Positions 6,522 through 32,915 of a DNA stretch of 64,000 nucleotides are shown here, piece by piece. Origin of the DNA: Minisyncoccota bacterium (GTDB lineage Bacteria; Patescibacteriota; Minisyncoccia; Phycocordibacterales; CAIZLB01); NCBI GenBank assembly GCA_018062305.1, contig JAGOSK010000002.1, positions 5,495-69,494 of the forward strand, written 5' to 3'. The notes beneath the pieces are model-generated. The model did no database searches. It had not been told where the DNA came from and was given only the letters and a program-made list of their open reading frames with translations. Within the stretch, counting starts at the first letter, position 1; each line of letters begins with the position of its first letter. Position numbers and translations under genes: made by a program.

Positions 6522-8545
<2,024 letters not shown>

Positions 8546-8776
8546 AATTCATATTATACATACCTTACGGTTGTCACTAATATACTTGTCGATCGTTCGA
8601 GTCCTGCATATGCGGATTTGAACAAAAGTTCATGACTTTCGAAACATGGAGACTAAGCGTCTTAAAAGCTTTGACAGTGGAGAAAGATCCATACTCAATG
8701 AAAGAATAGTGCGGAGATAGAGTATATCTCGTAAGCTTTAGATGTTGTAACTTATTCTGGTTTTAAATACCGAAAA

Positions 8777-8815
8777 ATCCACGCTGTGTAATAACAGGGT
8801 GGATTTTTCTTTGCT
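8777..8815 (+). terminator. Rho-independent terminator downstream of the 16S gene
   Basis: ATCCACGCTG-tgtaataa-CAGGGTGGAT: a 10-bp stem with one mismatch, followed by TTTTTCTTT. Confidence 0.55.
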
Positions 8816-8845
8816 TAATTTACTATTGGACCTATAATTATAGTC

Positions 8846-9940
8846 ATGTTTGAATCTCCGATAATTAATGATACAGTTTCCGAAGACATTACTGTTGGAG
8901 AATTAAAACCTGAATCTAGAGAGATCGAAGAACCTCTACAGGTGGCTAGAAGGATTAATAATTACACCAAAGAAGATCTTCTTAAATTTTCTAATGAGCA
9001 ATTGTTTGAAAGCTTGAACTCTTTAAGGTGGTCATCAGATGAGCTTGTGCCTGAAGAAATTCTCGATGCAGAAGCTCGTATTTATTCTGTGTATGAACCA
9101 AGTGTCGCCTTACAACTTCGGCATAAACAGGTGAACACTGAAGTAGTAGATTCCTACAATCCAAAAGATCTGTTGTCATTAAAGGAAAAATGGAAAACTG
9201 AAGTCGAAACAGATAAAAAAATTGCGTTCATAAAGAGTTACGTCGAAAAGTTAGCAGAACAATATGGATTAAATCAGAGCATTGATATTGTTGTTTATGA
9301 TGAACCTTTTGATAGTGAGGGGGCAATGTGGCTGGCTTCACATGAATCAGATAGAATTGGTGTCTTAATATTGTATAAAACTGTAATTGAAAAAAGTAAT
9401 CTTAATACAATTTTGAGTGATATTTCACACGAAATGGCACATGCTTTTCAAGAATCCATCAGAAAAGGGATTGTCCCAGATATTGATAACTTTAAAAATG
9501 ATCAAGAGTGGTTCAATGTCTATGCTTCGAGATATGATCAAGGTAAATCAAAATACCTAGATGCCTTTAAGTCTTCTCGTGCTAGATACTTAGCCATACC
9601 GATTGAGCGAGATGCATGGGCTATGCAACTTACGGCGTACAATGAGATTGATAGAGCTTCAGATCAATATGCAGATGAGGTACTAGCACAAGCAGGTCTT
9701 GATACTTATTCTAATATAAAAAAGCAATCAGTTTTGGCTAAGTGGATTCGACGGAACTTAAAAGAGGATACTGACCCAGACTCTTTAGTTGAACTTGCAA
9801 GGAGGTCTACTTTTTCAAGTTTTGTTGAGCAGGTTGAATCTTTTGTTTCAGGAAAGAATATGAATCAAATTATACCCGCTATAGAAACAATAGAGGAAAA
9901 GAGGCAAAAGGCTGATGAATTATTGGGTCTGGCAGCTTAG
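8846..9940 (+). CDS. Hypothetical protein with a zincin-like HEXXH motif (HEMAH at 9428..9442)
   Basis: 364-aa ORF with AT-rich codon usage. ISHEMAHAFQE is the only recognisable motif. No homing-endonuclease motifs are present. Confidence 0.6.
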   Translation: MFESPIINDTVSEDITVGELKPESREIEEPLQVARRINNYTKEDLLKFSNEQLFESLNSLRWSSDELVPEEILDAEARIYSVYEPSVALQLRHKQVNTEVVDSYNPKDLLSLKEKWKTEVETDKKIAFIKSYVEKLAEQYGLNQSIDIVVYDEPFDSEGAMWLASHESDRIGVLILYKTVIEKSNLNTILSDISHEMAHAFQESIRKGIVPDIDNFKNDQEWFNVYASRYDQGKSKYLDAFKSSRARYLAIPIERDAWAMQLTAYNEIDRASDQYADEVLAQAGLDTYSNIKKQSVLAKWIRRNLKEDTDPDSLVELARRSTFSSFVEQVESFVSGKNMNQIIPAIETIEEKRQKADELLGLAA

Positions 9941-10079
9941 AAAGTATCTAGTTTTCCTTGAGTGCTTATTTCAGTATGTCATAATGTACCTTGTTTTTGG
10001 GTCATTTTTTTGATATGGTAATGGTCACGTCGTGGCTGGAATGCGAGTTTAAATGGCTCGCTTGTCGGAACGTAAATAT

Positions 10080-10152
10080 GCGCTTGTAGCTCAGTTGGTA
10101 GAGCACATCACTGATACTGATGGGGTCCCAGGTTCGAATCCTGGCAGGCGCA
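10080..10152 (+). tRNA. tRNA-Ile (anticodon GAT)
   Basis: Cloverleaf by hand: acceptor GCGCTTG/CAGGCGC, D-arm TAGCTCAGTTGGTAGAGCA, anticodon stem CATCA/TGATG with loop CTGATAC, T-arm CCAGGTTCGAATCCTGG, discriminator A. CCA is not encoded. Confidence 0.9.
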
Positions 10153-10158
10153 CACGAC

Positions 10159-10188
10159 AAAAAAGACCGGACTGCTCCGGTCTTTTTT
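10159..10188 (+). terminator. Rho-independent terminator after tRNA-Ile
   Basis: GACCGGA-ctgc-TCCGGTC followed by TTTTTT. Confidence 0.7.
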
Positions 10189-11776: not shown

Positions 11777-12052
11777 CTAAAGTTTTTTTAATTTTTTTAT
11801 GAAGTTTTTCCCCTCAAGCGGGCTGTCACCATTCTTATTATCCTTTGCAGTTTCGATTTCTGATTCCCTAATTACTGATTGCAAAAAAGGAGTGGGTTCG
11901 TAAGACATGTTAAGAGATATCTCTTTTGTGCGTACAAACTGACGGAGAAGGGCATTAACAATAGTACCGAGGGGAATACCAAACCCTTCAGCAACAAGCT
12001 GAGCCTCAGTTTTGAGAGTTTTATCTATCTTCAAATTTAATACTGTCTTCAT
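11777..12052 (-). CDS. relB: Type II antitoxin, RelB/DinJ family (ribbon-helix-helix)
   Basis: MKTVLNLKIDKTLKTEAQLVAEGFGIPLGTIVNALLRQFV is DinJ/RelB-like. The internal ATG at 12052 is preferred over the track start at 12109 because a promoter and operator sit just upstream of it. Confidence 0.7.
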   Translation of the reverse strand: MKTVLNLKIDKTLKTEAQLVAEGFGIPLGTIVNALLRQFVRTKEISLNMSYEPTPFLQSVIRESEIETAKDNKNGDSPLEGKNFIKKLKKL

Positions 12053-12090
12053 AAACCAAAGTATATACTTTGGTTGGACATTGTCAATCT
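12053..12090 (-). promoter_or_regulatory. relBE promoter with palindromic operator
   Basis: On the minus strand: TTGACA (complement of 12082..12087), a 16-nt spacer, then TATACT. The perfect 18-bp palindrome CCAAAGTATATACTTTGG (12056..12073) overlaps the -10, and ATG follows about 7 nt after it, so the transcript is probably leaderless. Confidence 0.55.
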
Positions 12091-12203
12091 CTGTTAATTT
12101 AAAAAACATAAAGTTGGCTCTGCACAGCTTTGCATAAGTTAGCGTTGCATAAGTGTAAGTGTACCCTTAAGTATTCCCTTGTCCGGTGGACAAGTGTTTC
12201 ACC

Positions 12204-14789: not shown

Positions 14790-15578
14790 ATGACAACATA
14801 TACACGCACAGACAGCGATTTATTGATGACCACAGGATTTATAGGGGCGACGTCCTTAGGGTCTCCTTCGGATCACTCGAGCGGGGAAGCCGGAGAGCCT
14901 AGACAGTACATCCTCAAGCTTCGAGATCTACCCACAGACGACAAACCTCGTGAGAAGCTTATAGAGCAAGGGGTTCAGGCACTGTCTCTCCAGGAGCTCA
15001 TATCAGTCGTTTTAAACACTGGTACAAAGAAAGAGGACGTTACAGCTATGTCACAGAAGATTGTCCGAGAATACGGCAACAGCGCCCTTACAGGCACTGT
15101 TGACCCTACGACTATGGCAGAGGAGCTCGACATACCACTTGGTAAAGCATGTCAGGTTGTGGCGTGTAGTGAGATAGGGAGACGTCTATACAAAAAGAGC
15201 GATGTTGGTCTTGCGGTGATTCGCACAGCTGATGATGTGTACAAGTTTTTGGCTGAGATGCAGACATTGCCAAAAGAGCAACTTCGAGGTTTATATCTCG
15301 ATACTCACAATAGAGTAATTCACCAAGAGATCATTTCTATGGGTACTATTAATTCAAATATCGTGCATGCACGAGAAGTCTTCCGGCCAGCTCTTGAGTA
15401 CAATGCAGCCGCTGTGGTGCTCGCACACAATCACCCATCTGGTGTAGTGACTCCGAGTCTGTCGGACTCACAGATTACAAAACAGATTATAGAGGCAGGA
15501 AAAATCATCGGCATACACCTCCTCGACCACGTCATCATTACAAAAGACGGCTTTGCTAGTGTGCCAGCGGAGTACTAA
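14790..15578 (+). CDS. radC: RadC-family JAB/MPN-domain protein
   Basis: N-terminal LRDLPTDDKPREKLIEQG helix-hairpin-helix region. The C-terminal AHNHPSG JAMM motif follows. Confidence 0.85.
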   Translation: MTTYTRTDSDLLMTTGFIGATSLGSPSDHSSGEAGEPRQYILKLRDLPTDDKPREKLIEQGVQALSLQELISVVLNTGTKKEDVTAMSQKIVREYGNSALTGTVDPTTMAEELDIPLGKACQVVACSEIGRRLYKKSDVGLAVIRTADDVYKFLAEMQTLPKEQLRGLYLDTHNRVIHQEIISMGTINSNIVHAREVFRPALEYNAAAVVLAHNHPSGVVTPSLSDSQITKQIIEAGKIIGIHLLDHVIITKDGFASVPAEY

Positions 15579-15625
15579 AAAATGCTATACTAAATGTCAG
15601 AGACATCGCCGCGCCAAGAGGACGG

Positions 15626-15820
15626 TTGCGCGGCATGATTTCGCTAAATCAAATGAAAAAAAGAACACTCATTATTATATTAGGTATTTGGATCGCACTT
15701 ATTCCAGTCCTTGGACTTCCAAATGTTTGGAAAAATAGAATTGTTTCAGTATCTGCACTCATTGTGGTGTATCTCGCATATACGCGAAGCGCATCTCCAA
15801 AACCAACTAGTCAACAATAG
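15626..15820 (+). CDS. Small hypothetical membrane protein (two predicted TM helices)
   Basis: TLIIILGIWIALIPVLGL and IVSVSALIVVYLAY are hydrophobic segments. It sits between radC and the ATPase gene. Support is weak. Confidence 0.25.
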   Translation: MRGMISLNQMKKRTLIIILGIWIALIPVLGLPNVWKNRIVSVSALIVVYLAYTRSASPKPTSQQ

Positions 15821-15866
15821 TAATCTATTCTAATAAAAGATATTTGATATAGTCTGCGACACGACT

Positions 15867-18104
15867 TTGATATATAATGTTATTCATAAAGCTCTTATGA
15901 ATCCTAATGAAGATTTTTTAAATGATGATGAACAAGTAACGTACTTCGGTGAGACCGACGCGCGAAATCGACGTCTGCGTTTTGGTATAAAAAGAAAAGA
16001 TAGAGCGAAACATTTGTACGCCATCGGTAAAACAGGTATGGGTAAATCAACTCTGCTTGAGAATCTTGCTGTCCAAGATATTTTGAATGGGGAAGGGCTT
16101 TGTTTCCTTGATCCTCACGGCAAGTCTGCTGATCTATTGCTTGAATATGTTCCAGAACATCGTATAAAAGACGTCATCTACTTTGCACCGTTTGACATGG
16201 AGCACCCAATATCTTTTAACGTAATGGAAGACGTTGGACCTGAACAGCGATATCTTGTAGCAAGTGGAATGATGTCAGCCTTCAAGAAAATTTGGGTAGA
16301 CGCATGGTCGGCTCGAATGGAATATATTCTTGGAAATATTATGCTTGCACTTTTGGAGTATCCTGGTTCGACACTTGTGGGTGTAAATAGAATGCTCACA
16401 GACAAAGATTTTCGTAAAGAAGTTGTGAATCATATTTCTGATCCATCAGTAAAATCTTTTTGGGTGAATGAATATGCAAACTATACCGAAAAGTTTGCCG
16501 CTGAAGCCGCGCCTGCTATTCAAAACAAAGTAGGGCAGTTTGTTGCTAACCCGCTTATTCGAAATATTATCGGCCAGCCGAAATCATCTTTTGATATCCG
16601 AGACATTATGGATAACCGAAAGATACTCATTATCAACCTTTCAAAAGGTAGAGTGGGTGAAGCGAATGCAAATCTCCTGGGTTCAATGTTGATTACCAAA
16701 ATATATCTTGGCGCTATGAGTCGTGCTGATCTTGGTGAAAAAGAGCTAGAAAAGGCGCCAAACTTCTATCTCTATGTAGATGAGTTTCAATCTTTTGCAA
16801 ATGAGTCTTTTGCCGATATACTTTCTGAAGCTCGAAAATACAAGTTGGCTTTATGTATTGCTCACCAGTACATTGAACAAATGACCGAAGAGGTACGAGC
16901 GGCGGTGTTTGGAAACGTAGGTACTATGGTGACTTTTCGAGTGGGGGCATATGATGCTGAGATTCTTGAAAAAGAATATGCGCCACACTTTTTAGCCGAG
17001 GATATAGTGAGTCTCCAAAAATATCAAATGTATTTGAAGCTGATGATTGATGGGGTAACATCTCCGCCATTTTCAGCCGCAGGCATGGCACCTATTCCGC
17101 GTCCTGAAATAAATTATACCAATGAGATTTTGGCATCATCACGTGCTTTGTATGCAAAACCTCGACAGCAAGTAGAGGATGAACTTTTGGCATGGATTCA
17201 AAAGAAGTTCGGGGGAGGGGGTGGTAATTCTGGTGGTAGTTCATCGGGTGGTGGCAATGGCGGCGGAAATGGTTCTGCGGGCGGTAATGGCGGTGCTTCC
17301 TCAAACGGAAATGGTGGCTCAGGCAGTAGAGGTGGCGCATCGTCGACACCATACTCAAGTGGTCCACGGTCTGGTGGGGGATCTGGTGCTGGTGGAGTGA
17401 GATCTAGCGGTACGGGAAGTAGTTCTAGCTCATCATCTAGTACATCAAGTGGGGGATATTCATCTCCACGCCCTTCAGCGAGTGGAAGTAGTACTGGAAG
17501 TGCTATGCGCGACAGTCGCGGAAATACTCAACAATCAGGTCCAAGTTCACGCCCTGCTCATGCGCAATCTGATAATAGGGATCGTACAGCAACAAATCAC
17601 GTGACGACATCAAGTCATTCAATTAAACCATCACAACCAACCCACGGAATTCATTCAACCCAATCACCCCACGCAATTCCTTCAGCCTCCAGAAATCCAG
17701 TTCAAGCTAGTGGCGCAGTTGCTGCAGCGAATGTAGTACAAGGAAACGAACGCGAGCAAGAATTACGAAACGCAATGTCACTTAGTTATTTAAAAACTGA
17801 GCCCACACCGCCGAAGCACGAGAAAGTTCCAAAGCCAGAAAATATCGCAGCTTTACGTGAAGCACTGCTGTCTGTGATGAATCAGGATCAGTCAAAGAAT
17901 CTAATTCAAAATGAGGAAAAGCAGAGTGTTACTCCTGTACCTGAAACACCGGTTGATCATAAAAAAGAAGAGAAGTCAGATCCATCCGAAAAATCAGAAA
18001 CAAAACCTACTGCTCATACAAAACCAAATGATACGAGGGTGAGTGAAAAAAATGATAAAAAAGAGGTTCAAGAATCTGAGTTGAAAGATATTTTTGCAGA
18101 GTAG
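15867..18104 (+). CDS. Soluble P-loop ATPase of the TraD/TraG/VirD4 coupling-protein type (TrwB_AAD_bind-like) with a long disordered C-terminal tail
   Basis: Walker A is AIGKTGMGKST, Walker B is LYVDEFQSF, and LCIAHQYIEQM is a coupling-protein-like AHQ motif. There is no N-terminal TM. About 330 C-terminal residues are low-complexity (Gly/Ser/Asn, then Ser/Thr/Pro/His, then Lys/Glu-rich). The start may be the ATG at 15897 rather than the TTG at 15867. Confidence 0.7.
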   Translation: MIYNVIHKALMNPNEDFLNDDEQVTYFGETDARNRRLRFGIKRKDRAKHLYAIGKTGMGKSTLLENLAVQDILNGEGLCFLDPHGKSADLLLEYVPEHRIKDVIYFAPFDMEHPISFNVMEDVGPEQRYLVASGMMSAFKKIWVDAWSARMEYILGNIMLALLEYPGSTLVGVNRMLTDKDFRKEVVNHISDPSVKSFWVNEYANYTEKFAAEAAPAIQNKVGQFVANPLIRNIIGQPKSSFDIRDIMDNRKILIINLSKGRVGEANANLLGSMLITKIYLGAMSRADLGEKELEKAPNFYLYVDEFQSFANESFADILSEARKYKLALCIAHQYIEQMTEEVRAAVFGNVGTMVTFRVGAYDAEILEKEYAPHFLAEDIVSLQKYQMYLKLMIDGVTSPPFSAAGMAPIPRPEINYTNEILASSRALYAKPRQQVEDELLAWIQKKFGGGGGNSGGSSSGGGNGGGNGSAGGNGGASSNGNGGSGSRGGASSTPYSSGPRSGGGSGAGGVRSSGTGSSSSSSSSTSSGGYSSPRPSASGSSTGSAMRDSRGNTQQSGPSSRPAHAQSDNRDRTATNHVTTSSHSIKPSQPTHGIHSTQSPHAIPSASRNPVQASGAVAAANVVQGNEREQELRNAMSLSYLKTEPTPPKHEKVPKPENIAALREALLSVMNQDQSKNLIQNEEKQSVTPVPETPVDHKKEEKSDPSEKSETKPTAHTKPNDTRVSEKNDKKEVQESELKDIFAE

Positions 18105-18142: not shown

Positions 18143-18952
18143 CTATAGTTTAAAAATAAATTTACGAACAATACGAATATATGCTTTTACAAGTGCTTTA
18201 TAGTAGTTCGGATAGACATGCCTATATTTTTTAACTAATTCTAATACAACAAGTGCAAGTTTAATCCTCTCTTTTCCGTTTGATCCAGAGGCACTGTTTA
18301 TGCGAACAGTATATCGTGTTTCGGTATCAGGAATATTTGTAATGTCACCTATCTGGGCAAGACGAAGCCATAAATCGTAGTCTTCAGCTAGACGCATACT
18401 TGTGAGACCTCCCACTTTATTGTATGCGTCCCTTCGAAATACGACTGAAGAATTAATAATCGGACACCGTAGAAGCATTTCATCATGAATAACTTTTGGA
18501 TCAGTCTTGTGATAAAACCACCACATACGTGTTCCGCTTTCTGTGACGAATTCAGTTTTCTCTGCACCTACCACTAGCACATTTGGATTCTTTTCGAGAT
18601 ATGAAATTTGGTTCTCAAGCTTCTTTGGGTTGATCCAACTATCATCATCATCAAGAATAGCGATGTAGGGGTTCTGCATCTCTGATTGTGCGATACCTTT
18701 TGCACGAGCAGACCCTGGACCTACATTTTGTGCTAGCTCTATTAGTTTAACTCGAGGGTCTGTAGCGCCAATTTCACGTACTATTTTTGCTGTGTTATCT
18801 GTGCTCCCATCTGATACTACTACAATTTCAAAACCTGGGTACTCTGTAGGGTCTTGTGCATTTTGTACAGCAACACTCTGTTCGAGTGCACTTTGAATAG
18901 CACGCGCTATGTATTTTTCTCCATTTTTTGTTGCGATGATTACTGAGATCAT
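18143..18952 (-). CDS. Glycosyltransferase family 2
   Basis: MISVIIATKNGEKYIARAIQSALEQ, VVSDGSTDNT and ILDDDDSW are GT-A fold DxD motifs. Confidence 0.85.
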   Translation of the reverse strand: MISVIIATKNGEKYIARAIQSALEQSVAVQNAQDPTEYPGFEIVVVSDGSTDNTAKIVREIGATDPRVKLIELAQNVGPGSARAKGIAQSEMQNPYIAILDDDDSWINPKKLENQISYLEKNPNVLVVGAEKTEFVTESGTRMWWFYHKTDPKVIHDEMLLRCPIINSSVVFRRDAYNKVGGLTSMRLAEDYDLWLRLAQIGDITNIPDTETRYTVRINSASGSNGKERIKLALVVLELVKKYRHVYPNYYKALVKAYIRIVRKFIFKL

Positions 18953-19013
18953 GTTGGTTGGTACAATTATATAACTCTAGGAATTTCTGTGTGGCACTAG
19001 TATCCCAATTATA

Positions 19014-19955
19014 CTATAATTTTAGCCACTTTTCAGGGATAATATTTGGGTGATCTGTGCCGCTTACAGTCCATTGTTTCGGCGCAATTACTATTTTATC
19101 CGGATTACTATTCAGCCATGCACCCCACCAACTGAAAGAGCTATTGGCAATAATATTATGCTTGCATAAAGACATAAGGGCGAGCTCTTCGTAATCTTGG
19201 AGCTCTGGATTTGAAATATAGGTTACAGGACTTAGTACGCCCCCCTCGTTTTGACTAGAAGGGCTGTTTATAGGGATATTTTTCTTAACCCACTCAATAT
19301 CATCTGAAAATACAAAAAAATGTGGATTCGAGATATGTTGTTTAATGTGTGCTATTGCGTCAGTATAATACTGTATTGAACAAAGCCCTTGAGTTTTGTT
19401 TGCTGATGGATTTGTAACATAATCGCCTCGGCGGACATGAAGTGAAACTGAATTTTCGAAGTCGGATGCTGGATTTCCCATGGCTTGAATTTGATCCATA
19501 TATATTTTCATAACAGGGGATATATGCTCAGGCTTAAGTTGAAAGTCGTTCTGTATCATTTCTCGAAAATCGTTACTACCCACTGTATAGTATTTTTCAG
19601 ATTGAAAAAAACCATCTAGATATAGCGTGCCTGATGTGGCACTTTTTCTCTCGAGTAATTCTGGATGATAATCAATATAGTTCTTTCTAAGAATTTTTTG
19701 ACTGAATGCTCTCAAAACTTTTGAAACTATACCAAATGGATATTTTGCTCGCAGAACGTCTTCTGGCGTTGCGATATCCCCTTGTATATTAAAAAATTGA
19801 AGCCGGTACGAGCGGGGAGTGTCACCTTGAACCTTCGTAGCATAGCCAGTTGTGTCGAGCCTCAGTTCTTCATTGTGAACCTTTGATATGACTCGTCCGA
19901 GTGCATATTGAAACATTTGATTGCCGAGTCCTCCTCGGAGACGTGTGAGTATCAT
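19014..19955 (-). CDS. Alpha-1,2-fucosyltransferase (glycosyltransferase family 11)
   Basis: Carries the GT11 signature motifs GGLGNQMFQYA, HVRRGDY and FSWWGAWL. Confidence 0.85.
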   Translation of the reverse strand: MILTRLRGGLGNQMFQYALGRVISKVHNEELRLDTTGYATKVQGDTPRSYRLQFFNIQGDIATPEDVLRAKYPFGIVSKVLRAFSQKILRKNYIDYHPELLERKSATSGTLYLDGFFQSEKYYTVGSNDFREMIQNDFQLKPEHISPVMKIYMDQIQAMGNPASDFENSVSLHVRRGDYVTNPSANKTQGLCSIQYYTDAIAHIKQHISNPHFFVFSDDIEWVKKNIPINSPSSQNEGGVLSPVTYISNPELQDYEELALMSLCKHNIIANSSFSWWGAWLNSNPDKIVIAPKQWTVSGTDHPNIIPEKWLKL

Positions 19956-20746
19956 GAGATTTTTTTCTTAAACCAGAAACATCCGCATCCATAATTCTCT
20001 GCGTCAGCTTGAGACTTGGTCGCATTGATAAGTATACCGCCGTTTTGAGCGTTTTTATCATCTCGATCATTACGAGCATTCTCGGGAATAAGTGAAAATT
20101 CTACCAATTCAAGGTCTTTGAAATATTCAACAATGTAGATGTATGTATAGATCCGGTGAGCATTATATTCAATCTTGGCTGTGCCTCCGATAGGTGTAAC
20201 AAAAAGAATTGATCCGCCTGGTTTTGTCACACGGATGAGTTCGCGTATCGCCTTCAAATCTGCTTCTGGATCGATCGGATCACCATATCTTCCTAGTCCA
20301 ATATGCTCGATAGTGTGCATACAGGAAATAGACTCGAGGCTATTATCTTCGAAGGGGAGATTCATTAGATTTCCAGGTTTACTTTCAAGATTTGAGAGAT
20401 TCAACTCTGCAGGGCGATAGTCGTAGAATTTTACTGGAATAAAAGCTGAGACGATTCCACAAAAATAGAGACTCGAAGATATATCAGTATGAAATGATGG
20501 GTTTATCTCTTTTACTTTTCGAGCAGCCCATGCAGTGTGAAATACATAGTGTCGGTCAAATCCTGTTGTAATTGTCTTATCTTTGACACAAGGGTAAGCA
20601 TCACTGATGTTGAGAGAAAATCTTGCCGGAGTGCCCGCCTTGCTCGATTGTAGTATTGCTTTCTTGTACTTCATCCAGTCATGTAGGATGAGGGGTGTTT
20701 GGGCGTATCTGATCAATCGTTTGAGTATGTGTTTTAGGTTATTCAT
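19952..20746 (-). CDS. SAM-dependent methyltransferase (DUF268-like) in the glycan cluster
   Basis: ISCMHTIEHIGLGRYGDP...LIRVTKPGGSILFVTP is a Methyltransf_11-like core. It overlaps the GT11 gene by 4 nt. Confidence 0.65.
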   Translation of the reverse strand: MNNLKHILKRLIRYAQTPLILHDWMKYKKAILQSSKAGTPARFSLNISDAYPCVKDKTITTGFDRHYVFHTAWAARKVKEINPSFHTDISSSLYFCGIVSAFIPVKFYDYRPAELNLSNLESKPGNLMNLPFEDNSLESISCMHTIEHIGLGRYGDPIDPEADLKAIRELIRVTKPGGSILFVTPIGGTAKIEYNAHRIYTYIYIVEYFKDLELVEFSLIPENARNDRDDKNAQNGGILINATKSQADAENYGCGCFWFKKKIS

Positions 20747-21939
20747 GGATGTAGTATAGCAAAAAGTGCCTCAATTTCTTTAACTGCATCTGACACTGAT
20801 ATATTGCGAATGCAAGGGGCAATTTCTCCAGCTCTGAGATTTTGGCTGCATTTCCAATCGTCACCCCTACAGCTAACATTTTCATCTGCAATGTATCGAT
20901 TAGTGATAGGATTTCCATAAGGAAAAAATCTATTAAAATGTCCACCACCTAAAATGCAAACTACAGGGGTGCCGACCGCAATTGCTAAGTGAAGTGGTCC
21001 AGTTTCGCTTCCAAAATAGAAAAGTGAACGCTGCAATATATGTGCAAAATTTGGTAGATCCGTAAGTCCTGTAATATTAAATATCTTTTCCTTATTTTTT
21101 ACATCAGCAAATATCTTTTCTGATAAATGTATATCTCCTTTACTTCCAGAGATAAGCACTGATAATCCATATTTCTCAACTACGTAGTCTGCGATTTGTA
21201 CAAACTTTTCCAATTGCCATGTTCGATATGGCGCTCCAGCTCCTGCGAGAAGTACACAGTATTTTTTTTCTTTTAGATTGAATTTTGAAAATACTTCATC
21301 AGCCTCACTGTGATCAAACTTTTGTATATCTAAAGAGGGAAAGGTGAGTGTGCACTGCAGACCTGTCACTGCTTGTGCAAAAAACATATTTCGCATGGGT
21401 TCATTGAGATCTGCGGGTGTTATGATTATTCTCGAGTAGTCACCATCTGTCGACATATTTCCAAAAGCGCTCTCAAATGCAATGGTCTCTTTTGCTCCTG
21501 TAGCTCTCACCATGCGGTCTCCAATATATTCGCGGGAGTATACCGCATGCACGACGGTATCAAAACCCTGCTTCGCTAAATTATGCATAAAATTCCTTCT
21601 GTAAAAAAAGTTTGTTCTAAACTTTTTGCCATCGTAAGGGATAATCTTGTCTATAAAGGAGAATTGATTCAATAATTCCAATGCTACTGTGTTTACCACA
21701 AGACTAATCTCAGCTTCTTTGTAGTATTCTCTATAATACGTAAGTGTCGGTATAAATAGTATAAAATCACCAATTACATCTTTGCGTAGTATGAGAACTT
21801 TTTTCTTATGCGCGGCATTGGTATGAGGTGAGCGAAGAGAAAAACTTCGAGCGGTTCTTAAGATCCAACATTCGATACTGATATATGTATCCATGATGCC
21901 TTTAAAGATAGATCTAGTGATAGTACGAACAGAGCTCAT
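20743..21939 (-). CDS. Glycosyltransferase family 9 (heptosyltransferase-like)
   Basis: KKVLILRKDVIGDFILFIPTL at the N-terminus and GSETGPLHLAIAVGTPVVCILGG near the C-terminus are the classic GT9 motifs. Confidence 0.8.
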   Translation of the reverse strand: MSSVRTITRSIFKGIMDTYISIECWILRTARSFSLRSPHTNAAHKKKVLILRKDVIGDFILFIPTLTYYREYYKEAEISLVVNTVALELLNQFSFIDKIIPYDGKKFRTNFFYRRNFMHNLAKQGFDTVVHAVYSREYIGDRMVRATGAKETIAFESAFGNMSTDGDYSRIIITPADLNEPMRNMFFAQAVTGLQCTLTFPSLDIQKFDHSEADEVFSKFNLKEKKYCVLLAGAGAPYRTWQLEKFVQIADYVVEKYGLSVLISGSKGDIHLSEKIFADVKNKEKIFNITGLTDLPNFAHILQRSLFYFGSETGPLHLAIAVGTPVVCILGGGHFNRFFPYGNPITNRYIADENVSCRGDDWKCSQNLRAGEIAPCIRNISVSDAVKEIEALFAILHP

Positions 21940-21949
21940 TGTATTATAA

Positions 21950-22738
21950 TTATATTATTCCTCGTCTCTTTAATTCTTGATTATCACTATATGTCTTTGT
22001 TTTTAGAAAAATCTTCTTCAAGAACAAATCAAGTTCAAATTTTGTAGAGAACATGAGAAGTTTAAATAGCCATTGTGGGAAGTTTTTATTTGAGAACAAG
22101 TGTATGTTTTTTCCATCAGTGTAGAAATGCACACCATGTTGCTTGGCAATATAGGAGAGTGATTCTTTTGAGTAAAAAGCTACATGTTGACCATGATTGA
22201 GTCCATAGTATTCCCAATCTGAAGCGGGTGGAGTTTCCTTTGGTAACAAGACTGTTGAAAAGAAAATATTTTTTGTAATAGAAAACATTTTGTCTATCTC
22301 TTCCTTGGGGTTGGGGAGGTGTTCAAAACATTCAAACGTACTGAGTAGCTCAATCGGCGTGTTCTGTTCCTTCTTATATTCAAATCCTTGAGCAAATAGA
22401 TTCTTGGTGTAAATATCATCCCATAAGAAATTTAATCCATAATCTCTCATAAGACGTGTAAGCATACCGTAGCCTCCTCCATAATCTAGATAAGTTTTAT
22501 CAGTTCCAAAAATGAGTGAACAGAGAATAAGTGTCTTTCGAGAAAGATAGACATTTCGCATTACATAACCTGTGTCTGTGATATTTATAGGAGCCTCATA
22601 AGCTTCTGTAAGCCATGTTGGATTATCTATAAACATAAAACCACACGATTGGCAGAGATAATACTCAGCCTGATGGGTATTTCGGACAGTAAGTGTTTTT
22701 ACATGTTTTGATTCTGAATCGCAGATTTTACATTTCAT
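21950..22738 (-). CDS. SAM-dependent methyltransferase with N-terminal C4 zinc ribbon (sugar C/O-methyltransferase-like)
   Basis: CKIC...CQSC forms a Zn ribbon. Motif I is LDYGGGYGMLTRLM, with a Methyltransf_13-like layout. Confidence 0.7.
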   Translation of the reverse strand: MKCKICDSESKHVKTLTVRNTHQAEYYLCQSCGFMFIDNPTWLTEAYEAPINITDTGYVMRNVYLSRKTLILCSLIFGTDKTYLDYGGGYGMLTRLMRDYGLNFLWDDIYTKNLFAQGFEYKKEQNTPIELLSTFECFEHLPNPKEEIDKMFSITKNIFFSTVLLPKETPPASDWEYYGLNHGQHVAFYSKESLSYIAKQHGVHFYTDGKNIHLFSNKNFPQWLFKLLMFSTKFELDLFLKKIFLKTKTYSDNQELKRRGII

Positions 22739-22746
22739 AGGTATAA

Positions 22747-23673
22747 CTATATAACTGATTTGAACTTATCCCAAATTTTTCTATATATAGATTTTATATA
22801 TAATCTATGGGATACAATAGAATCTAAGTCTTGTCGTATAGGTAGTTCGGCTTCAAGGTGAGGGCTTGGTAGCTCCTGTATATCAATACTGGACAGCTTC
22901 TTCGAGAATTGACTAAATGATGATTGAGCTTGAGTATGTGTCCCTTCAGATCCAAATCCAATATTTTCTATAAGATTCTGTACTGGTGTTATGCAAACCC
23001 CATTCGATTTAAGTATTGTGTACGCCCACTGTGCATCCCAAGTATTAATCTGCTTATTTCTTATGTGTTTAAATAATGAAATCCAGAATTTACCAATTCT
23101 TCTGTCTTTAAATTGAGATAAAATATGTTTTTGTGTTGTAGATTCTTCAATCCCTGTCATCTCTATGTCGTATGCATTCCAAGCACGGCGCCAGGAAGCC
23201 CAACCCCAAACGTGAACATTTTTAGAAAAGTAATACGAGTCGTGAGTGCCAATATTTTTATTCAACTCATCAGCTATAAAATTACTTCCATTTATATGAA
23301 AAATTCTACTGTCATTTGCGTACTGTGAAAGCATGAGACCTGCAAAATCGAAGAATGTTGGATCAGGTAAACAATCGTCCTCTAGAATAATTCCTTGTTC
23401 TTCATTTTCAAAAAACCAAGTAATAGCGCTAGAAACTGCTTTTTTACAGCCTAAATTTTTATCTCTATATAGTCTTTTGACCTCACAAGGCCAATCGATA
23501 GTTTCAGTAATAGCTCTCACTGCGTCGCATTTTTCTTTTTCCCCAGGCCTGTCCTGACGAGGTCCGTCTGCCGATATATAGAGCTTCTCTGGTTTTGCCT
23601 TTCTTATCACTTCAAAAACACGCTCAGTTGTATCCTTACGATTGAATATTATAAATAAGATAGGGGTTTCCAT
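22747..23673 (-). CDS. GT-A fold nucleotide-sugar transferase (HlpA-like)
   Basis: PILFIIFNRKDTTERVFEVIRKAKPEKLYISADGPR and IILEDDCLP are motifs seen in HlpA-like glycosyltransferases. The family assignment is tentative. Confidence 0.55.
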   Translation of the reverse strand: METPILFIIFNRKDTTERVFEVIRKAKPEKLYISADGPRQDRPGEKEKCDAVRAITETIDWPCEVKRLYRDKNLGCKKAVSSAITWFFENEEQGIILEDDCLPDPTFFDFAGLMLSQYANDSRIFHINGSNFIADELNKNIGTHDSYYFSKNVHVWGWASWRRAWNAYDIEMTGIEESTTQKHILSQFKDRRIGKFWISLFKHIRNKQINTWDAQWAYTILKSNGVCITPVQNLIENIGFGSEGTHTQAQSSFSQFSKKLSSIDIQELPSPHLEAELPIRQDLDSIVSHRLYIKSIYRKIWDKFKSVI

Positions 23674-23718
23674 GTTGGTTATTTAGGCACGATTTCTGTG
23701 GTTGTATTTTAGTTTTAA

Positions 23719-25695
23719 TTATCTAACATAGTAACCACTAGATTTTTTAAATGTAAAAATATCTACACTCCCTCCATGTATATTATACGGTAATACTGCT
23801 GTAAATGGCTTAGGTAGAGCCGCAGCAACAGCGGCACCTCCAGAAAGTACGGTTATGAAATAGTGGCATGAAGAAATCATATCCACGTATTGGAAAAGAT
23901 TTTGTTTTGTAGGATTAATCTCTTCAATTTTTAGATTTCTATTGTCACTCAATCTCTTTTCAATTTCATTATCAAATGTTTTGTCTTTGTAGAACCACCC
24001 CAATTTTTTACCACTAATATAATTTTTATCCACTAAAATTGTATCTGAGTATTCATTTAGAATATTTGGTCTGTAATAGATTTCAGGGATTCCTTCGCCA
24101 TTCAAACCAAATTGTCTTTCTACTATTTCTGTAAGAGCGCAACCTCTTTGGTCTGTAATGATGTTGTAGATTGACTTATCTGAAGCAAATATTTCAAACT
24201 CAAAGAAATTGCCATCGTCTCGTACCCCTTTAAAATAGGGATTCATCTCAAAGCATAATTTAAAAATGTCATTATTTCTCAACGAAGCGATACATCTAGT
24301 TGTTAGATAAAATTTTATTCCGTACTGCTCATGTAATAATCTAGGTAGACTTGTAAACGCCATCCAGTCACCGAGACCTCCGAAACGAATATCAAAGATA
24401 ATTTCCTTTGTCTTTTTAATATATTCTATTCGCTCATAGTAGAATGCTCGTTCCGATTTTCTTTGATAAAGATCAATGAGATTGTTTTTAAATGAAAGAG
24501 CACCGAATATTACTTTAGATAGTGCTGAGTTGTTTTTTATAATCTTTTTTGCTTTGCGTAACATTTTAGACACGATTGATTCTGCATCACCGCGCTTAAC
24601 ATAGTTGCGGATATTTTCTATCTTTTTATATGCTTCACGTTGTGATGTTCCTTCTCGACATAGCTGTGCCATCTGTATTTTTTCCTTCAGAGCAGGATAA
24701 GGAAATTCAGTTTCCGATAGTGTGTTTAAAATGGCTAATGCCTCATTATATAAACCTTTTCTAATATATTCAGAACCGGCCCAGTATCTCTCAGTCATGA
24801 TTTGTGATTTTGATAACCTCTTTACAGTTTCAATAGAATAATTTTGATCAAGATTTGAAGTAAATTCTGTATTGAAAATTTCTGGATAGCTCTTAATTAA
24901 ATCCATCAAACCGATTGTAGTTTGTGTGAAATTGAATGAAAGTATTTCTTTTTGGACATGTTCTTTAAAAAGGATCAAAAACTCATCAAGCACCTCAAAC
25001 CAGTTATAGTTTGTCTTGCCACTTTCATATTCACGCACATAGTATGATTTGTTGAAATGTTGACGGTGAAGATAGGTTGCCTCGGGACACGTGCTTGCAT
25101 ACAAACCGTGTGCTAAAAAACGCCAGGCAAAGGATTGAGTGTCGAACCCATGGAATTCCGTATAGCCATTAGTTATTTCAAATGCCTTTTTTGTATGCAT
25201 GAATGTTGAATAGAGTGGGTTGAAGGGTCCTTTGGTATTCTCAATTAATGCATTTAGTGGAATTTTTTCATTTACATATCCAAATTCATCAACTCTAAAT
25301 ACATCTGACACGTCCGCACCTTTAAATTTAATCGATTTGTGAATACCAACTCCATCGCAATTCAATCTTTTCATATGTGTAAGCATCAATGAAAGTGTGT
25401 TTTCGGGTAACAGATCATCACTATCAAGACAAAAAATAATTTCAGCGGCGCTTTCTTTGATAGCACGGTTCCGCGTTGCCCCACCTCCAAGGTTCTTTTC
25501 GTTTCTATAAATACGTATTTCAGGGTATCTTGATGTGAGAATTTGCATTAAGTTCCATGTTGAATCTGTTGACCCGTCATCTACCATTATAATTTCAAAA
25601 GAACTGAGGTTTTGGATGAAGCATGATTCAACAGCCGCTTCCAGGGTTTCGTAACAGTTGTAGCAAGGGATTATTATAGTTAGCTCAGGTTTCAT
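23719..25695 (-). CDS. Multidomain glycosyltransferase: N-terminal GT2, central helical/TPR-like segment, C-terminal GT9-like domain
   Basis: N-terminus: TIIIPCYNCYETLEAAVESC and IMVDDGSTDST (GT2). C-terminus: FDIRFGGLGDWMAFTSLP and LSGGAAVAAALPKPFTAVLP (GT9-like). 658 aa. Confidence 0.7.
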   Translation of the reverse strand: MKPELTIIIPCYNCYETLEAAVESCFIQNLSSFEIIMVDDGSTDSTWNLMQILTSRYPEIRIYRNEKNLGGGATRNRAIKESAAEIIFCLDSDDLLPENTLSLMLTHMKRLNCDGVGIHKSIKFKGADVSDVFRVDEFGYVNEKIPLNALIENTKGPFNPLYSTFMHTKKAFEITNGYTEFHGFDTQSFAWRFLAHGLYASTCPEATYLHRQHFNKSYYVREYESGKTNYNWFEVLDEFLILFKEHVQKEILSFNFTQTTIGLMDLIKSYPEIFNTEFTSNLDQNYSIETVKRLSKSQIMTERYWAGSEYIRKGLYNEALAILNTLSETEFPYPALKEKIQMAQLCREGTSQREAYKKIENIRNYVKRGDAESIVSKMLRKAKKIIKNNSALSKVIFGALSFKNNLIDLYQRKSERAFYYERIEYIKKTKEIIFDIRFGGLGDWMAFTSLPRLLHEQYGIKFYLTTRCIASLRNNDIFKLCFEMNPYFKGVRDDGNFFEFEIFASDKSIYNIITDQRGCALTEIVERQFGLNGEGIPEIYYRPNILNEYSDTILVDKNYISGKKLGWFYKDKTFDNEIEKRLSDNRNLKIEEINPTKQNLFQYVDMISSCHYFITVLSGGAAVAAALPKPFTAVLPYNIHGGSVDIFTFKKSSGYYVR

Positions 25696-25699
25696 CTTT

Positions 25700-26506
25700 T
25701 TATAGTTTTACAATAAGAACAGATCCGCTTTTGTCTGGCATCGGGATTGGTATTTCTTGCTTGTCTCTAAAGAATGTATCAACAGCCTCTCGTGCGCCGA
25801 TCCAAGAATTATAGTCATGCACAACAATCATTGCACCCGTACTCATTTTTGGATAAAACATTTCAAGCCCTTTGAATGTGGGTTCATATAGATCAGCATC
25901 AAGATGTACAAATGAAAAATTCATACTGTCGAAAGATGTAGGCAGTATGTCAGGGAAGTAGGCTTGGTAATAAGAAACATTAGCATTGCCATCAATATAT
26001 TTTTGTACACTCTCGAGGTTTGTATCTGCGAAGTGGTTCTGTGATATTGAAAGGCCTGTTAGACTTTTTTCAGCGTTTACGCTTCGTTCTTTAAAACCCG
26101 CAAACGTATCAAACAAATGCAATTTTCGTTCAGGGGCATATTTATGTAAAAGCTTCGCTGTTGATCCCTTATATACACCAACTTCAGCAAAATCTCCAGG
26201 AATGTTATTCTCTGTGATTGTACGTAAAAAAAGTACGAGCATGTCTCTACGTGTTGTGTCCCAGGGTTCAATGTCAGTTATCGTTCTCTCGATGCAATCA
26301 TTTTTTGGAAAATAACCATGAGTGATATCTATAAAATCTTTTTTGTACCATAAAGATTTAGGCTGTAAGTCCATCTGTCCTTGAAGATAGAATGCAGACT
26401 TTTTCACTAAGCCTGCCATTGTCTTGCCGTGCATTCTTATTAAGCCATAAAAAAACTCTGATGGATCTTTAATTGATTTAATAATATTTAATAGTATTTT
26501 ATTCAT
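25700..26506 (-). CDS. TylF/MycF/NovP-type sugar O-methyltransferase (macrocin O-methyltransferase family)
   Basis: Motifs GDFAEVGVYKGSTAKLL and VHLDADLYEPTFKGLEMFYPKMSTGAMIVVHDY are characteristic of this family. Confidence 0.8.
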   Translation of the reverse strand: MNKILLNIIKSIKDPSEFFYGLIRMHGKTMAGLVKKSAFYLQGQMDLQPKSLWYKKDFIDITHGYFPKNDCIERTITDIEPWDTTRRDMLVLFLRTITENNIPGDFAEVGVYKGSTAKLLHKYAPERKLHLFDTFAGFKERSVNAEKSLTGLSISQNHFADTNLESVQKYIDGNANVSYYQAYFPDILPTSFDSMNFSFVHLDADLYEPTFKGLEMFYPKMSTGAMIVVHDYNSWIGAREAVDTFFRDKQEIPIPMPDKSGSVLIVKL

Positions 26507-26515
26507 ATGTTTATC

Positions 26516-27463
26516 TTAATGAAGCTTCTTTGCTATCTCCTGATCTATTTTAATTCTTTTTATCCAATAATCCATCCGTAGTGGCTCCCAATTCGGATTC
26601 TTCATAAGCTCATTGTATTTTTGAGATAGAGATTCAGGTGTCTGATAATCGTCTAGTTCCTTCCAATCTTTCACAATCCACATTGGTAATCCAAGCGAAA
26701 CAAAATATCTATAAGCAACAAAGTCTTTGACTATAGGTACTGTACGTAGCTCTAATGCCTCCCAAGTCCTATGGCTTTCTATAGAGTTTCCAGGAGGTGA
26801 GGCGACAAATTTATATGTCATTAATTTTCGCAGATGAAGACTTGGAGGTAGCATCTGCGAAAAAGTTTCCATTAAAGGGTGTTTAAAAAAGAGCTCAAGA
26901 GCTGGCTTTCTTTCTGTTGGATTTGTATACACACTAAATCTAAAAAGAATTTTATCTTGCTTGACTAGAGGGTTGCACCTCATCTTCTTAATCAAACGAT
27001 TGAATACAGCCGGAATACCATTCATGTAATATCTTTTGTTTTCCAGCGAAATCCCAATCGGGACAATCTTATCATGTTTAAAGACAACGTCCTGTGCGTA
27101 GCATTTTACAATCTTATCGTCGATCATATTCGCAAAGGTTTGGTCGATTGCATTATCACCGTTATGTACGAGAAGTATATACGGGTATTTAATTTGTTTA
27201 TGCAAAGTCTGCATGTATTTATGTGCACAGCTATTTGATGCAAAAACGATGTCTCCTTGCTTTACGTCTTTTGGATTGAATGCAGTTTCTTCATCATATA
27301 TATGTTGCGCCAGTAGCCTAAAAGAATCTCCACTTATGAAAGGATAACTTCCAGGACGACTGTCTCTGGTTATTTTCATCCATATTTTTCTATAGATACC
27401 ACGTCGGAGAATCATAATATATTTACTTAAAGTAAATGTAAGTGGGCTTATTTTTGCTTCCAT
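26516..27463 (-). CDS. Hypothetical protein of the glycan cluster (possible transferase)
   Basis: 315-aa ORF co-oriented with flanking glycan genes. No confident motif was found. Confidence 0.55.
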   Translation of the reverse strand: MEAKISPLTFTLSKYIMILRRGIYRKIWMKITRDSRPGSYPFISGDSFRLLAQHIYDEETAFNPKDVKQGDIVFASNSCAHKYMQTLHKQIKYPYILLVHNGDNAIDQTFANMIDDKIVKCYAQDVVFKHDKIVPIGISLENKRYYMNGIPAVFNRLIKKMRCNPLVKQDKILFRFSVYTNPTERKPALELFFKHPLMETFSQMLPPSLHLRKLMTYKFVASPPGNSIESHRTWEALELRTVPIVKDFVAYRYFVSLGLPMWIVKDWKELDDYQTPESLSQKYNELMKNPNWEPLRMDYWIKRIKIDQEIAKKLH

Positions 27464-27670
27464 ATGAGTAATAGTATATCTTATAATATATGTTTTGCGA
27501 GGTGTGTTTCTACGTGTCGTAATGTGTGTAGTCTAAGGCTTGTGTTTGCTTGACTACTGTAGAAGCCCCTCATTATGCACCACATATGCAACTTTAATAT
27601 ACAAGTATAGAATGAGATATTCAATACGTATATTCTTAAACTTGAGGCATAAGTAAACGCCTTGCCGAAA

Positions 27671-29209: not shown

Positions 29210-29288
29210 TAGGACTGAATTATACTATAAAAATAGATATGATATACTCCATCTTATATCAAATTAAGCTACATTTAAGAAGATTAAA

Positions 29289-31721: not shown

Positions 31722-31772
31722 TATTGAGCGCTATATCTATATCTATCACCATTAACAGTCACGCCAAATTAC

Positions 31773-32915
31773 ATGAAAAAAACTGAAAAAGTTTCGCAAA
31801 ATGTTTCTTCGAAAAAATCTAAAGTTGCACTCATTACAGGTATCACCGGACAAGACGGTATGTATCTTGCAGAACTACTCCTCAATAAAGGATATATTGT
31901 TCATGGTCTCAAAAGACGTTCATCTTCACTAAACACAGAACGTATAGATCATCTCTATCAAGATCAGCATGAAAAGAGTGTTCGATTTTTTCTACATTAT
32001 GGGGATATGACTGACTCAACGAACTTAATCCGTATAGTTCAGCAAGTTCAGCCAGATGAAATATATAATCTCGCAGCGCAATCACATGTACAGGTTTCTT
32101 TTGAGACACCAGAATATACAGCGAACGCCGATGGAATAGGAGTGCTTCGAATCCTTGAGGCAATACGAATTCTTGGTCTCGAAAAAAAGACACGGTTTTA
32201 TCAAGCGTCGACTTCAGAGTTGTATGGATTGGTTCAAGAGGTTCCACAAAAAGAGACCACACCCTTTTATCCGCGTTCACCATACGGTGTTGCCAAACTC
32301 TACGGATTTTGGATTACTAAAAACTACAGAGAAGCATATGGAATGTATGCGTGTAATGGAATCTTGTTCAATCACGAGAGTCCTGTTCGTGGAGAAACAT
32401 TCGTAACTCGAAAAATTACTCGTGCGGTTGCGCGTATCTCACTTGGTTTACAAGACTCATTGTATTTAGGTAATCTCGATTCAGAGCGCGACTGGGGACA
32501 CGCAAAAGACTATGTAGAAGGAATGTGGCGCATGCTACAGCAAAAGAGTGCAGAGGACTACGTGTTGGCAACTGGAGTAAAATATACCGTGCGAACATTT
32601 GTAGAAAAAGCTTTTGCACACGTTGGTATTACTATTGTATGGAAAGGTAAAGGAGTTAACGAAGTTGGATATGATGCGAAAGATGCCTCAAAAAATAAAA
32701 GACCACTCGTAAAAATCAGTAAAAAATATTTCAGACCTGCAGAAGTTGAACTACTTATCGGTGATGCAACAAAAGCTCAGACGAAGCTTGGATGGAAACC
32801 AAAATACACACTTGATGAACTTGTGAAGGAAATGGTTGAAGCAGATGTACTACTTATGAAGAAAGAAATATATTTAAAGGAAAATGGATTCAAGACACTA
32901 AAGAAATATGAATAA
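31773..32915 (+). CDS. gmd: GDP-mannose 4,6-dehydratase
   Basis: [20 protein letters not shown] is the Rossmann GxxGxxG motif. The YxxxK catalytic region and the full-length 380-aa layout match Gmd. Confidence 0.95.

Follow-up and report, generated by a model that had tools for sequence, protein, structure and literature searches.

A highly conserved ATPase without a membrane anchor, a probable homologue of type IV coupling proteins, on a Patescibacteria chromosome

The 64,000-nt stretch of contig JAGOSK010000002.1 analysed here in full, which we call the window, comes from a Minisyncoccota bacterium. Within a short part of it lie three genes in the same orientation, encoding a RadC-family protein, a micro-protein with two transmembrane (TM) helices, and a P-loop ATPase with a long low-complexity tail. 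An original prediction, made from the sequence, had placed the three open reading frames (ORFs) at this position, as the ORF listing bears out, and had proposed that they may constitute a DNA-handling module. In this study, we conclude with high confidence that the ATPase is a homologue of the type IV coupling proteins (T4CPs; the VirD4/TrwB/TraD superfamily) that lacks their transmembrane domain (TMD). We are also confident, if slightly less so, that there is no functional module around radC, and the region is best described as three independent chromosomal genes. The significance of the locus rests on the conservation of the ATPase and on the architecture of its tail, not on the gene cluster. 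The features are listed below, with the ATPase first; its residues are counted from the ATG at 15897, and pLDDT stands for the predicted local distance difference test score of the AlphaFold model.

15897-18104, + strand: P-loop ATPase, 735 aa, likely ATG start, stop codon at 18102-18104
15897-17210, + strand: ATPase core, aa 1-438, RecA-like nucleotide-binding domain with no TM segment
16026-16052, + strand: Walker A motif GKTGMGKST, aa 44-52, with G44, K45, T46, G49, K50 and S51 invariant
16248-16613, + strand: all-alpha insertion of the ATPase core, aa 118-239, from the AlphaFold model
16764-16787, + strand: Walker B motif FYLYVDEF, aa 290-297, with D295 and E296 invariant
16854-16883, + strand: AHQ motif CIAHQYIEQM, aa 320-329, after Walker B, aligning to GLQSTSQL of TrwB
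17211-17711, + strand: disordered linker, aa 439-605, pLDDT <50, of widely varying length and composition among homologues
17712-17792, + strand: tail motif 1, ELRxAxSLxYLK, predicted helix within aa 606-632
17823-17894, + strand: tail motif 2, KPENxxALRxALLSVM, predicted helix at aa 647-666
18054-18101, + strand: C-terminal peptide EVxExxLKxIFxE, predicted helix at aa 726-734
14790-15578, + strand: RadC, 262 aa, N-terminal helix-hairpin-helix (HhH)-type UPF0758_N domain and JAB/JAMM domain
15653-15820, + strand: two-TM micro-protein, about 55 aa, from a hydrophobicity scan and an alignment of 12 orthologues

The longest ORF for the ATPase (15867-18104, + strand) opens with a TTG and would encode 745 aa. 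The ATG at 15897 is the likelier start, because a database protein (P0001), which aligns with 99% of the query at 100% identity, has 735 aa. The Walker A, Walker B and AHQ-type motifs named in the original prediction are all present and are invariant in the 73 aligned homologues by which we judged the columns of the protein, about 200 of which do not vary. The AlphaFold2 model, built with these 73 homologues, is confident at aa 10-350 and has a RecA-like core with an all-alpha insertion. The protein had also been described as having no TM anchor, and rightly so, as the Kyte-Doolittle value in any 19-residue window does not exceed 1.23 and no TM segment was found. Its N-terminus is modelled as a mere β-hairpin (aa 14-32), and all 80 orthologues begin at the same position. 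A hidden anchor or an alternative start was considered and rejected, since the ORF opens directly after a stop codon and no in-frame 5' extension is possible.

The suggestion of a TraD/VirD4-like identity is upheld by both sequence profiles and structural matches. Two Pfam families of T4CPs match above threshold, namely PF10412 (TrwB_AAD_bind; 29.6 bits, cutoff 20.5) and PF02534 (T4SS-DNA_transf; 22.4 bits, cutoff 20.1), whereas the HerA-type family DUF87 stays below its own (18.4 vs 23.2) and FtsK_SpoIIIE gives no match in the Pfam scan. A sequence search of the PDB with the ATPase matched TrwB and DotL. Foldseek ranks DotL, HerA, TrwB and Cagβ first for the model, with a TM score, normalised to the target, of 0.53-0.57 for TrwB. 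The model also resembles VirB4, and the C-domain of DptH is among its top structural matches; T4CP-, VirB4- and HerA-type structures match far better than FtsK does. The predicted fold places the ATPase core in the VirD4/VirB4/HerA clade rather than with FtsK, and within this clade the sequence profiles favour the coupling-protein branch. Membership in the T4CPs, as far as profiles define it, holds at the superfamily level only.

Some of the features by which T4CPs are recognised are found in the ATPase, and some are not. It has a nucleotide-binding domain with Walker motifs that the profiles recognise, and an all-alpha insertion in a TrwB-like fold. An N-terminal TM domain is absent from the ATPase, and linkage to virB4 or a relaxase is found neither in the 64-kb window nor within 6 kb on either side of the ATPase in the 80 related loci. 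Without a TM domain and without linkage to a relaxase or a type IV secretion system (T4SS), this protein fails two classical T4CP features. TMD-less T4CPs are, however, a recognised subfamily (PMC7434980). Two other identities were examined and rejected. For an FtsK/SpoIIIE translocase, neither the motor-domain profile and fold, nor the gamma domain, nor the N-terminal membrane domain was found; for a HerA helicase, DUF87 is under its cutoff, there is no HAS barrel, and no NurA-like neighbour occurs in the window or the related loci.

Compared with the best-known members of the superfamily, TrwB of R388, TraD of F and DotL of Legionella, the ATPase of the window is only 15-19% identical, has no N-terminal TM domain, and has no cognate T4SS or relaxosome genes nearby. 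Its tail is far longer than theirs and mostly of low complexity. Moreover, whereas those proteins are plasmid-borne and fast-evolving, the ATPase described here is vertically inherited and extremely conserved. It differs from HerA and from the C-domains of DptH (DndH) and VirB4 in having no HAS barrel, no NurA partner, no Dnd/Dpt genes and no VirB4 N-terminal domain. A parallel in layout is TraJ of pIP501, likewise a TMD-less coupling-protein ATPase with a small membrane protein, TraI, encoded close by (PMC7434980). However, TraJ sits in a plasmid T4SS operon with a relaxase, whereas the ATPase of the window has no T4SS context, and its small protein is coupled in relatives to a different gene, DUF4015, and shows no relationship to TraI that could be detected in the sequence.

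The tail begins where the folded core stops, near aa 438, and is about 297 aa long. The original prediction had described 330 disordered residues of tripartite low complexity. The tripartite composition stands, with G 36%, S 34% and N 6% at aa 439-540, a stretch rich in S, T, P, Q and H at aa 541-605, and E 15% and K 12% at aa 606-735. The length does not stand, nor is the tail featureless, as its last third contains three conserved motifs. AlphaFold models each of them as an isolated helix (pLDDT about 75-79) amid disorder, and EVxExxLKxIFxE is the extreme C-terminus in nearly all of the roughly 60 homologues listed. Tail length among homologues ranges from about 150 to more than 400 aa, and composition varies freely. 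No known domain was found in the tail by a Pfam search at E<=10, and its DNA contains only a trivial 12-nt repeat. Heterogeneous, Glu-rich C-terminal domains that recruit partners are known in T4CPs; the tail of TraD binds TraM, and that of DotL binds IcmSW and other adaptors (PMC7434980). By analogy, we infer that the tail of the ATPase may be a flexible tether carrying docking peptides.

The ATPase is both widespread and unusually constant. It gives more than 8000 word-indexed database matches and 5979 cluster representatives at E<1e-30, and it is found in at least 590 GTDB species genomes, the best 80 of which are 70-96% identical over the core. These 80 supplied the related loci used throughout, each taken with 6 kb on either side and analysed by tblastn and ORF clustering. 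Two other proteins encoded in the same loci are less constant, with an identity of 63-65% for SecA against 71-74% for the ATPase, and of 53-58% for pyruvate kinase against 72-80% for the ATPase. This pattern is that of a vertically inherited, strongly constrained core gene, unlike a mobile accessory gene, and the ATPase is under very strong purifying selection.

A group to which the ATPase belongs has been noticed before. A 2025 survey (Quiñonero-Coronel et al., PMC12102498) counts 5,713 VirD4-type homologues in 2,918 of 3,035 Patescibacteria genomes (96%), just 148 of them near virB4, and reports VirB4 in 2,417 genomes (80%); exaptation of the T4CP homologues is raised there as a possibility (see also PMC12857230 and PMC11665869). 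The ATPase of the window resembles the orphan homologues of the survey in its phylum-level group, its detection by VirD4/TrwB profiles, its chromosomal site, its distance from virB4 and its lack of a relaxase. It is thus a member of an already-noticed, uncharacterised Patescibacteria T4CP group. In the parts of the survey consulted, no split by architecture was found, and the ATPase represents an anchor-less form with a three-motif tail. What the present analysis adds is a core more conserved than SecA, three conserved tail motifs that are predicted to be helical, and a sister form with a different N-terminus.

Homologues of the soluble, tail-bearing form can be traced until identity has dropped to about 45-57%. 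The sister form sets in at about 55% identity and below (about 45-55%); in it, N-terminal TM helices and a DUF8128 region of about 350 aa precede the ATPase (e.g., proteins P0182, P0184, P0187 and P0205, and loci L084/L085, 10001-22826). Two genes of the DUF8128 form bracket, in one genome, an array of about 10 small unannotated ORFs, one of which has a weak T4SS_pilin match, and the DUF8128 form may be the T4CP that actually serves the pilin-array T4SS of Patescibacteria. The nearest plasmid relative is a lone soluble protein of 395 aa from Sulfitobacter, without a tail and 42% identical to the core. On the Sulfitobacter mediterraneus plasmid NZ_CP081110.1 (L081), this homologue occupies 8986-10173 beside a DUF3768 gene and transposases, and it may reflect horizontal transfer of the soluble form outside the Candidate Phyla Radiation (CPR). 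Identity is only 28% for a T4CP in a genuine T4SS context, carried on an Embleya plasmid that also encodes PrgI, a VirB4-like ATPase and a relaxase. A consistent operon partner was also sought among the more distant soluble homologues and rejected, as their contexts differ.

The setting of the gene is that of an ordinary chromosome. The window encodes a bacterial 16S rRNA, tRNA-Ile, SecD, SecF, SecA, pyruvate kinase, GAPDH, Obg, GatB and RNase J, along with a large surface-polysaccharide cluster, and the close relatives of the ATPase all come from metagenome-assembled genomes of Patescibacteria (Paceibacteria/Parcubacteria). The window is part of the chromosome of a Paceibacteria-type bacterium (CPR/Patescibacteria). 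Its 64 kb yielded no gene for an integrase, a relaxase, VirB4, VirB6 or another T4SS component, nor any of the com and pil genes that the original prediction had suggested looking for, and no shift in composition was detected at the ATPase locus.

The RadC protein itself is a regular member of its family. It matches PF04002 (RadC) at 6e-41 and PF20582 (UPF0758_N) at 1.6e-15 in Pfam, and the equivalog PRK00024 / NF000642 in NCBIfam at 199.7 bits against a cutoff of 180. The JAB domain with its HxHxxxxxxxxxxD motif and the UPF0758_N domain that together define the RadC/UPF0758 family are both there, and the metal-binding JAMM motif is intact (HNHPSGx7D; HNHPSGVVTPSLSD). The protein is therefore a full-length member with the metal-binding motif, and its sole oddity is an N-terminal extension of about 40 aa. 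In the original prediction, adjacency to RadC was taken as a hint of DNA uptake or processing; the supposed role of RadC in competence or repair is itself disputed, although some role with nucleic acids is suggested by the HhH domain and by the contexts in which radC is found elsewhere (PMC3239186).

Gene order among relatives speaks against a link between radC and the ATPase. The dominant order in the 80 loci is rsmI (TP_methylase), micro-protein, DUF4015, ATPase and then surface genes, the latter being an array of GT4 glycosyltransferase genes, a gene for an LTD/PKD surface protein or an O-antigen-ligase-like gene; these neighbours were identified with Pfam. DUF4015, a TM-anchored putative glycoside hydrolase, lies upstream in 49 of the 80 loci and rsmI in 35. 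The occurrence of radC was counted in the 61 related loci with more than 3 kb of upstream DNA, and it is upstream of the ATPase in 12 of these and absent from 49. Eleven of the 12 belong to the closest relatives (ATPase identity >=76%), and the twelfth (L038) is at 72%. The original prediction had itself named the lack of a conserved linkage with radC as grounds for its refutation, and the pairing is confined to the nearest relatives. Even where radC is present, it usually lies 1.8-3.2 kb from the ATPase, with rsmI, the micro-protein gene and DUF4015 in between; loci L006-L011, for example, have the order radC, rsmI, (micro-protein), DUF4015, ATPase, and the tight arrangement of the window is common to L001, L003 and L004 only. 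In the radC-bearing loci, radC moves together with pyruvate kinase and pgl, which indicates plain synteny. In the window, neither rsmI nor DUF4015 is at the ATPase site. The block of rsmI, micro-protein, DUF4015 and ATPase is the ancestral one, radC and the ATPase became adjacent, as in the window, when rsmI and DUF4015 left the site by loss or relocation in one narrow lineage, and the position of radC is a lineage-specific accident of gene order.

The micro-protein is a gene in its own right. Its longest ORF (15626-15820, + strand; 64 aa) opens with a TTG, and the ATG at 15653 (55 aa) is the likely start because the homologues begin at MKKR. In the 12 aligned orthologues, two hydrophobic helices are separated by a loop with an invariant LG-x-P..WK pattern, and the conservation of these features marks a genuine gene rather than a chance ORF. 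Besides the window, 38 of the 80 related loci carry a member of this micro-protein family, which has no sequence match to any family in NCBIfam or in Pfam, hits up to E<=10 included. In 27 of 29 cases, the stop codon of the micro-protein gene overlaps or abuts the start of DUF4015 at a distance between -56 and +25 nt, whereas the gaps between DUF4015 and the ATPase vary from 46 to about 1400 nt. This spacing ties the micro-protein to DUF4015 and not to the ATPase. As a separate observation, a spacer of 300-1400 nt lies 5' of the ATPase in many Paceibacteria loci (e.g., L016, L023, L032 and L039) and contains no conserved ORF; the ORFs found in the spacers between DUF4015 and the ATPase are unrelated to each other. 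No Rfam match in 11 loci and no conserved non-coding block pointed to an RNA or regulatory element in these spacers.

Taking together the identity as a TMD-less T4CP, the absence of a radC module and a role coupled to a T4SS, we regard our overall reading as somewhat better than an even chance. According to this reading, the ATPase core would most likely assemble into a ring-shaped, ATP-driven motor, as in the TrwB, HerA and VirB4 families, and by the same analogy the motor would spend ATP to act on a polymer or on client proteins. The tail at the C-terminus, long and flexible, would act as a tether, and its three conserved helical motifs would dock partner or substrate proteins, following the logic of the acidic extensions of TraD and DotL. 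The likeliest client would be the T4SS-like apparatus of Patescibacteria (VirB4/TrsD/VirB3/VirB6/VirB2-like pilins), the genes for which lie in another part of the genome. Having no anchor, the ATPase would be brought to this apparatus via protein contacts. The T4SS-coupled role, an argument from related systems, is put forward tentatively and at rather less than an even chance.

Several results weigh against this reading. Neither in the window nor in any of the 80 related loci is a T4SS gene found close to the ATPase. The NCBIfam equivalogs for T4CPs (TraD, CD1115, TrbC and similar) reach 42 bits at best against a cutoff of 366, with a match around the P-loop only, and the fold comparison cannot separate a T4CP from VirB4, DptH or HerA. 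Conservation above that of SecA is unusual for an accessory secretion factor. According to the survey, T4CP homologues occur in more Patescibacteria genomes than VirB4 does, and in Ca. Southlakia epibionticum the T4CP homologue, which may or may not be orthologous to the soluble form, is reported to be dispensable whereas the T4SS is essential (PMC12102498). A bolder proposal, which we consider doubtful, is that the anchor-less ATPase was exapted from conjugation and serves Paceibacteria as an essential housekeeping motor. It would either power or gate the import of host-derived macromolecules via the T4SS-like apparatus or act on the chromosome independently of any T4SS; in both cases, the tail peptides would define a new partner-recruitment code, and the DUF8128 form would be the 'true' coupling protein of the pilin-array T4SS.

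The rival and favoured readings are not all mutually exclusive. An exaptation independent of the T4SS, in which the ATPase is a cytosolic housekeeping motor on DNA or nucleoprotein (chromosome processing or segregation, or imported DNA), would be in keeping with the HerA, DptH and FtsK-type relatives, which work as cytosolic motors on such substrates. We nevertheless judge it rather unlikely, as no DNA-binding domain was identified in the ATPase, no nuclease, NurA or recombinase partner is conserved nearby, and FtsK is present in Saccharibacterium TM7x, so that a replacement for FtsK is not obviously needed; the design of the tail also fits the partner-recruiting C-terminal domains of T4CPs. 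The micro-protein could instead be the detached membrane anchor of a split coupling protein. In the window, the two genes lie side by side and run in the same direction, the two-TM topology resembles T4CP N-termini, the micro-protein gene is upstream of the ATPase in the 38 loci mentioned above and stays beside it in about 10 loci without DUF4015, and there is a precedent in TraI of pIP501, which has been proposed as the anchor for the TMD-less TraJ (PMC7434980). However, DUF4015 intervenes in most genomes, the micro-protein gene abuts that gene while the distance from there to the ATPase drifts, the micro-protein goes undetected in about half of the loci, and it is without a sequence match to any family, which together make this reading improbable.

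The module of RadC, micro-protein and ATPase for DNA uptake or DNA processing is a very unlikely explanation. Its appeal is that the genes are close and co-directional in the window and in L001, L003 and L004, that T4CPs handle DNA during conjugation, and that a nucleic-acid role has been suggested for RadC, as noted above. Against it stand the absence of radC from 49 of 61 loci, its usual distance from the ATPase elsewhere, its plain synteny with pyruvate kinase and pgl, and the lack of com and pil genes in the window; in addition, the promoter scan finds a promoter-like site immediately 5' of radC, and a TATAAT can be seen by eye, though it was not called by the scan, 18 nt before the ATG of the ATPase. 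A role in the envelope, where the ATPase would work with DUF4015, glycosyltransferases and the LTD protein, e.g., by energising the assembly or export of surface structures, draws on the conserved order from the micro-protein through DUF4015 and the ATPase to the surface genes, on the frequency of DUF4015 upstream and of an LTD gene directly downstream, and on an overlap of the LTD start with the ATPase stop in a relative at 49% identity. This role is quite unlikely, as the window has no DUF4015, the spacing between neighbours is variable, distant homologues have other neighbours, and long-range housekeeping synteny requires no functional link; to our knowledge, no member of the ATPase clade exports glycans. 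Least probable is a defence ATPase (similar to mad8 of MADS, or of DptH/HerA type) or the relic of an integrated conjugative element. A PADLOC match to mad8 (51 bits, at the level of the ATPase only), the similarity to the DptH C-domain and the plasmid-borne relatives in Sulfitobacter (42%) and Embleya (28%, T4SS locus) could be cited for it, but no other defence, integrase, relaxase or VirB genes lie nearby, composition is normal, and the chromosomal position, fixed across 80 species, and the extreme conservation are the reverse of how defence islands and mobile elements behave.

The favoured reading of a TMD-less T4CP homologue matters because a large part of bacterial diversity consists of Patescibacteria and the way in which they acquire resources from hosts is at stake. 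According to the survey, the single species tested cannot do without a T4SS-like machine, yet the coupling-protein homologues, found in 96% of genomes, are encoded apart from it (PMC12102498). For one major class, the homologue can now be described as a soluble protein that is conserved more strongly than SecA and bears three conserved peptides in its tail. A vague annotation is thereby turned into concrete questions, namely what binds the tail peptides and whether the ATPase and the T4SS co-vary, and the adjacency to RadC is removed as a misleading lead.

Other observations concern genes around the ATPase. In about 10 of the 80 loci, the gene directly downstream of the ATPase encodes a secreted, membrane-anchored lamin-tail-domain (LTD) protein, often with PKD; loci with this arrangement include L018, L019, L021-L023, L027, L058, L061 and L063, and the overlapping LTD gene of the 49%-identity relative is in L086 (10057-11586). 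In the window, the region directly downstream of the ATPase (18143-33891) is the large surface-glycan cluster, which encodes GT2, GT11 (fucosyltransferase-type) and GT9 glycosyltransferases, several methyltransferases, a Wzx-like flippase, a Wzy_C-TPR protein, and a GDP-mannose 4,6-dehydratase with an epimerase/reductase. The presence of GT11, GDP-mannose 4,6-dehydratase and the accompanying enzymes suggests a fucose-containing polysaccharide.

Elsewhere in the window, the 16S rRNA gene (within 6522-10153) is compact, with 1403 nt covering the full 1533-position Rfam model. A 364-aa ORF (8846-9940) with a weak DUF6055 match only lies between it and tRNA-Ile(GAT) at 10080-10153. As no 23S or 5S rRNA gene was found anywhere in the 64 kb, the rRNA genes of this genome appear, from sequence, to be unlinked. 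A 110-aa ORF at 11777-12109 (- strand) has a sub-threshold match to the RelB antitoxin (20.6 bits vs a cutoff of 22.4). Finally, the gene at 52879-57291 encodes a protein of 1470 aa with a Peptidase_S74 (endosialidase-chaperone) domain near its C-terminus, which by resemblance would be a fibre- or adhesin-like surface protein.

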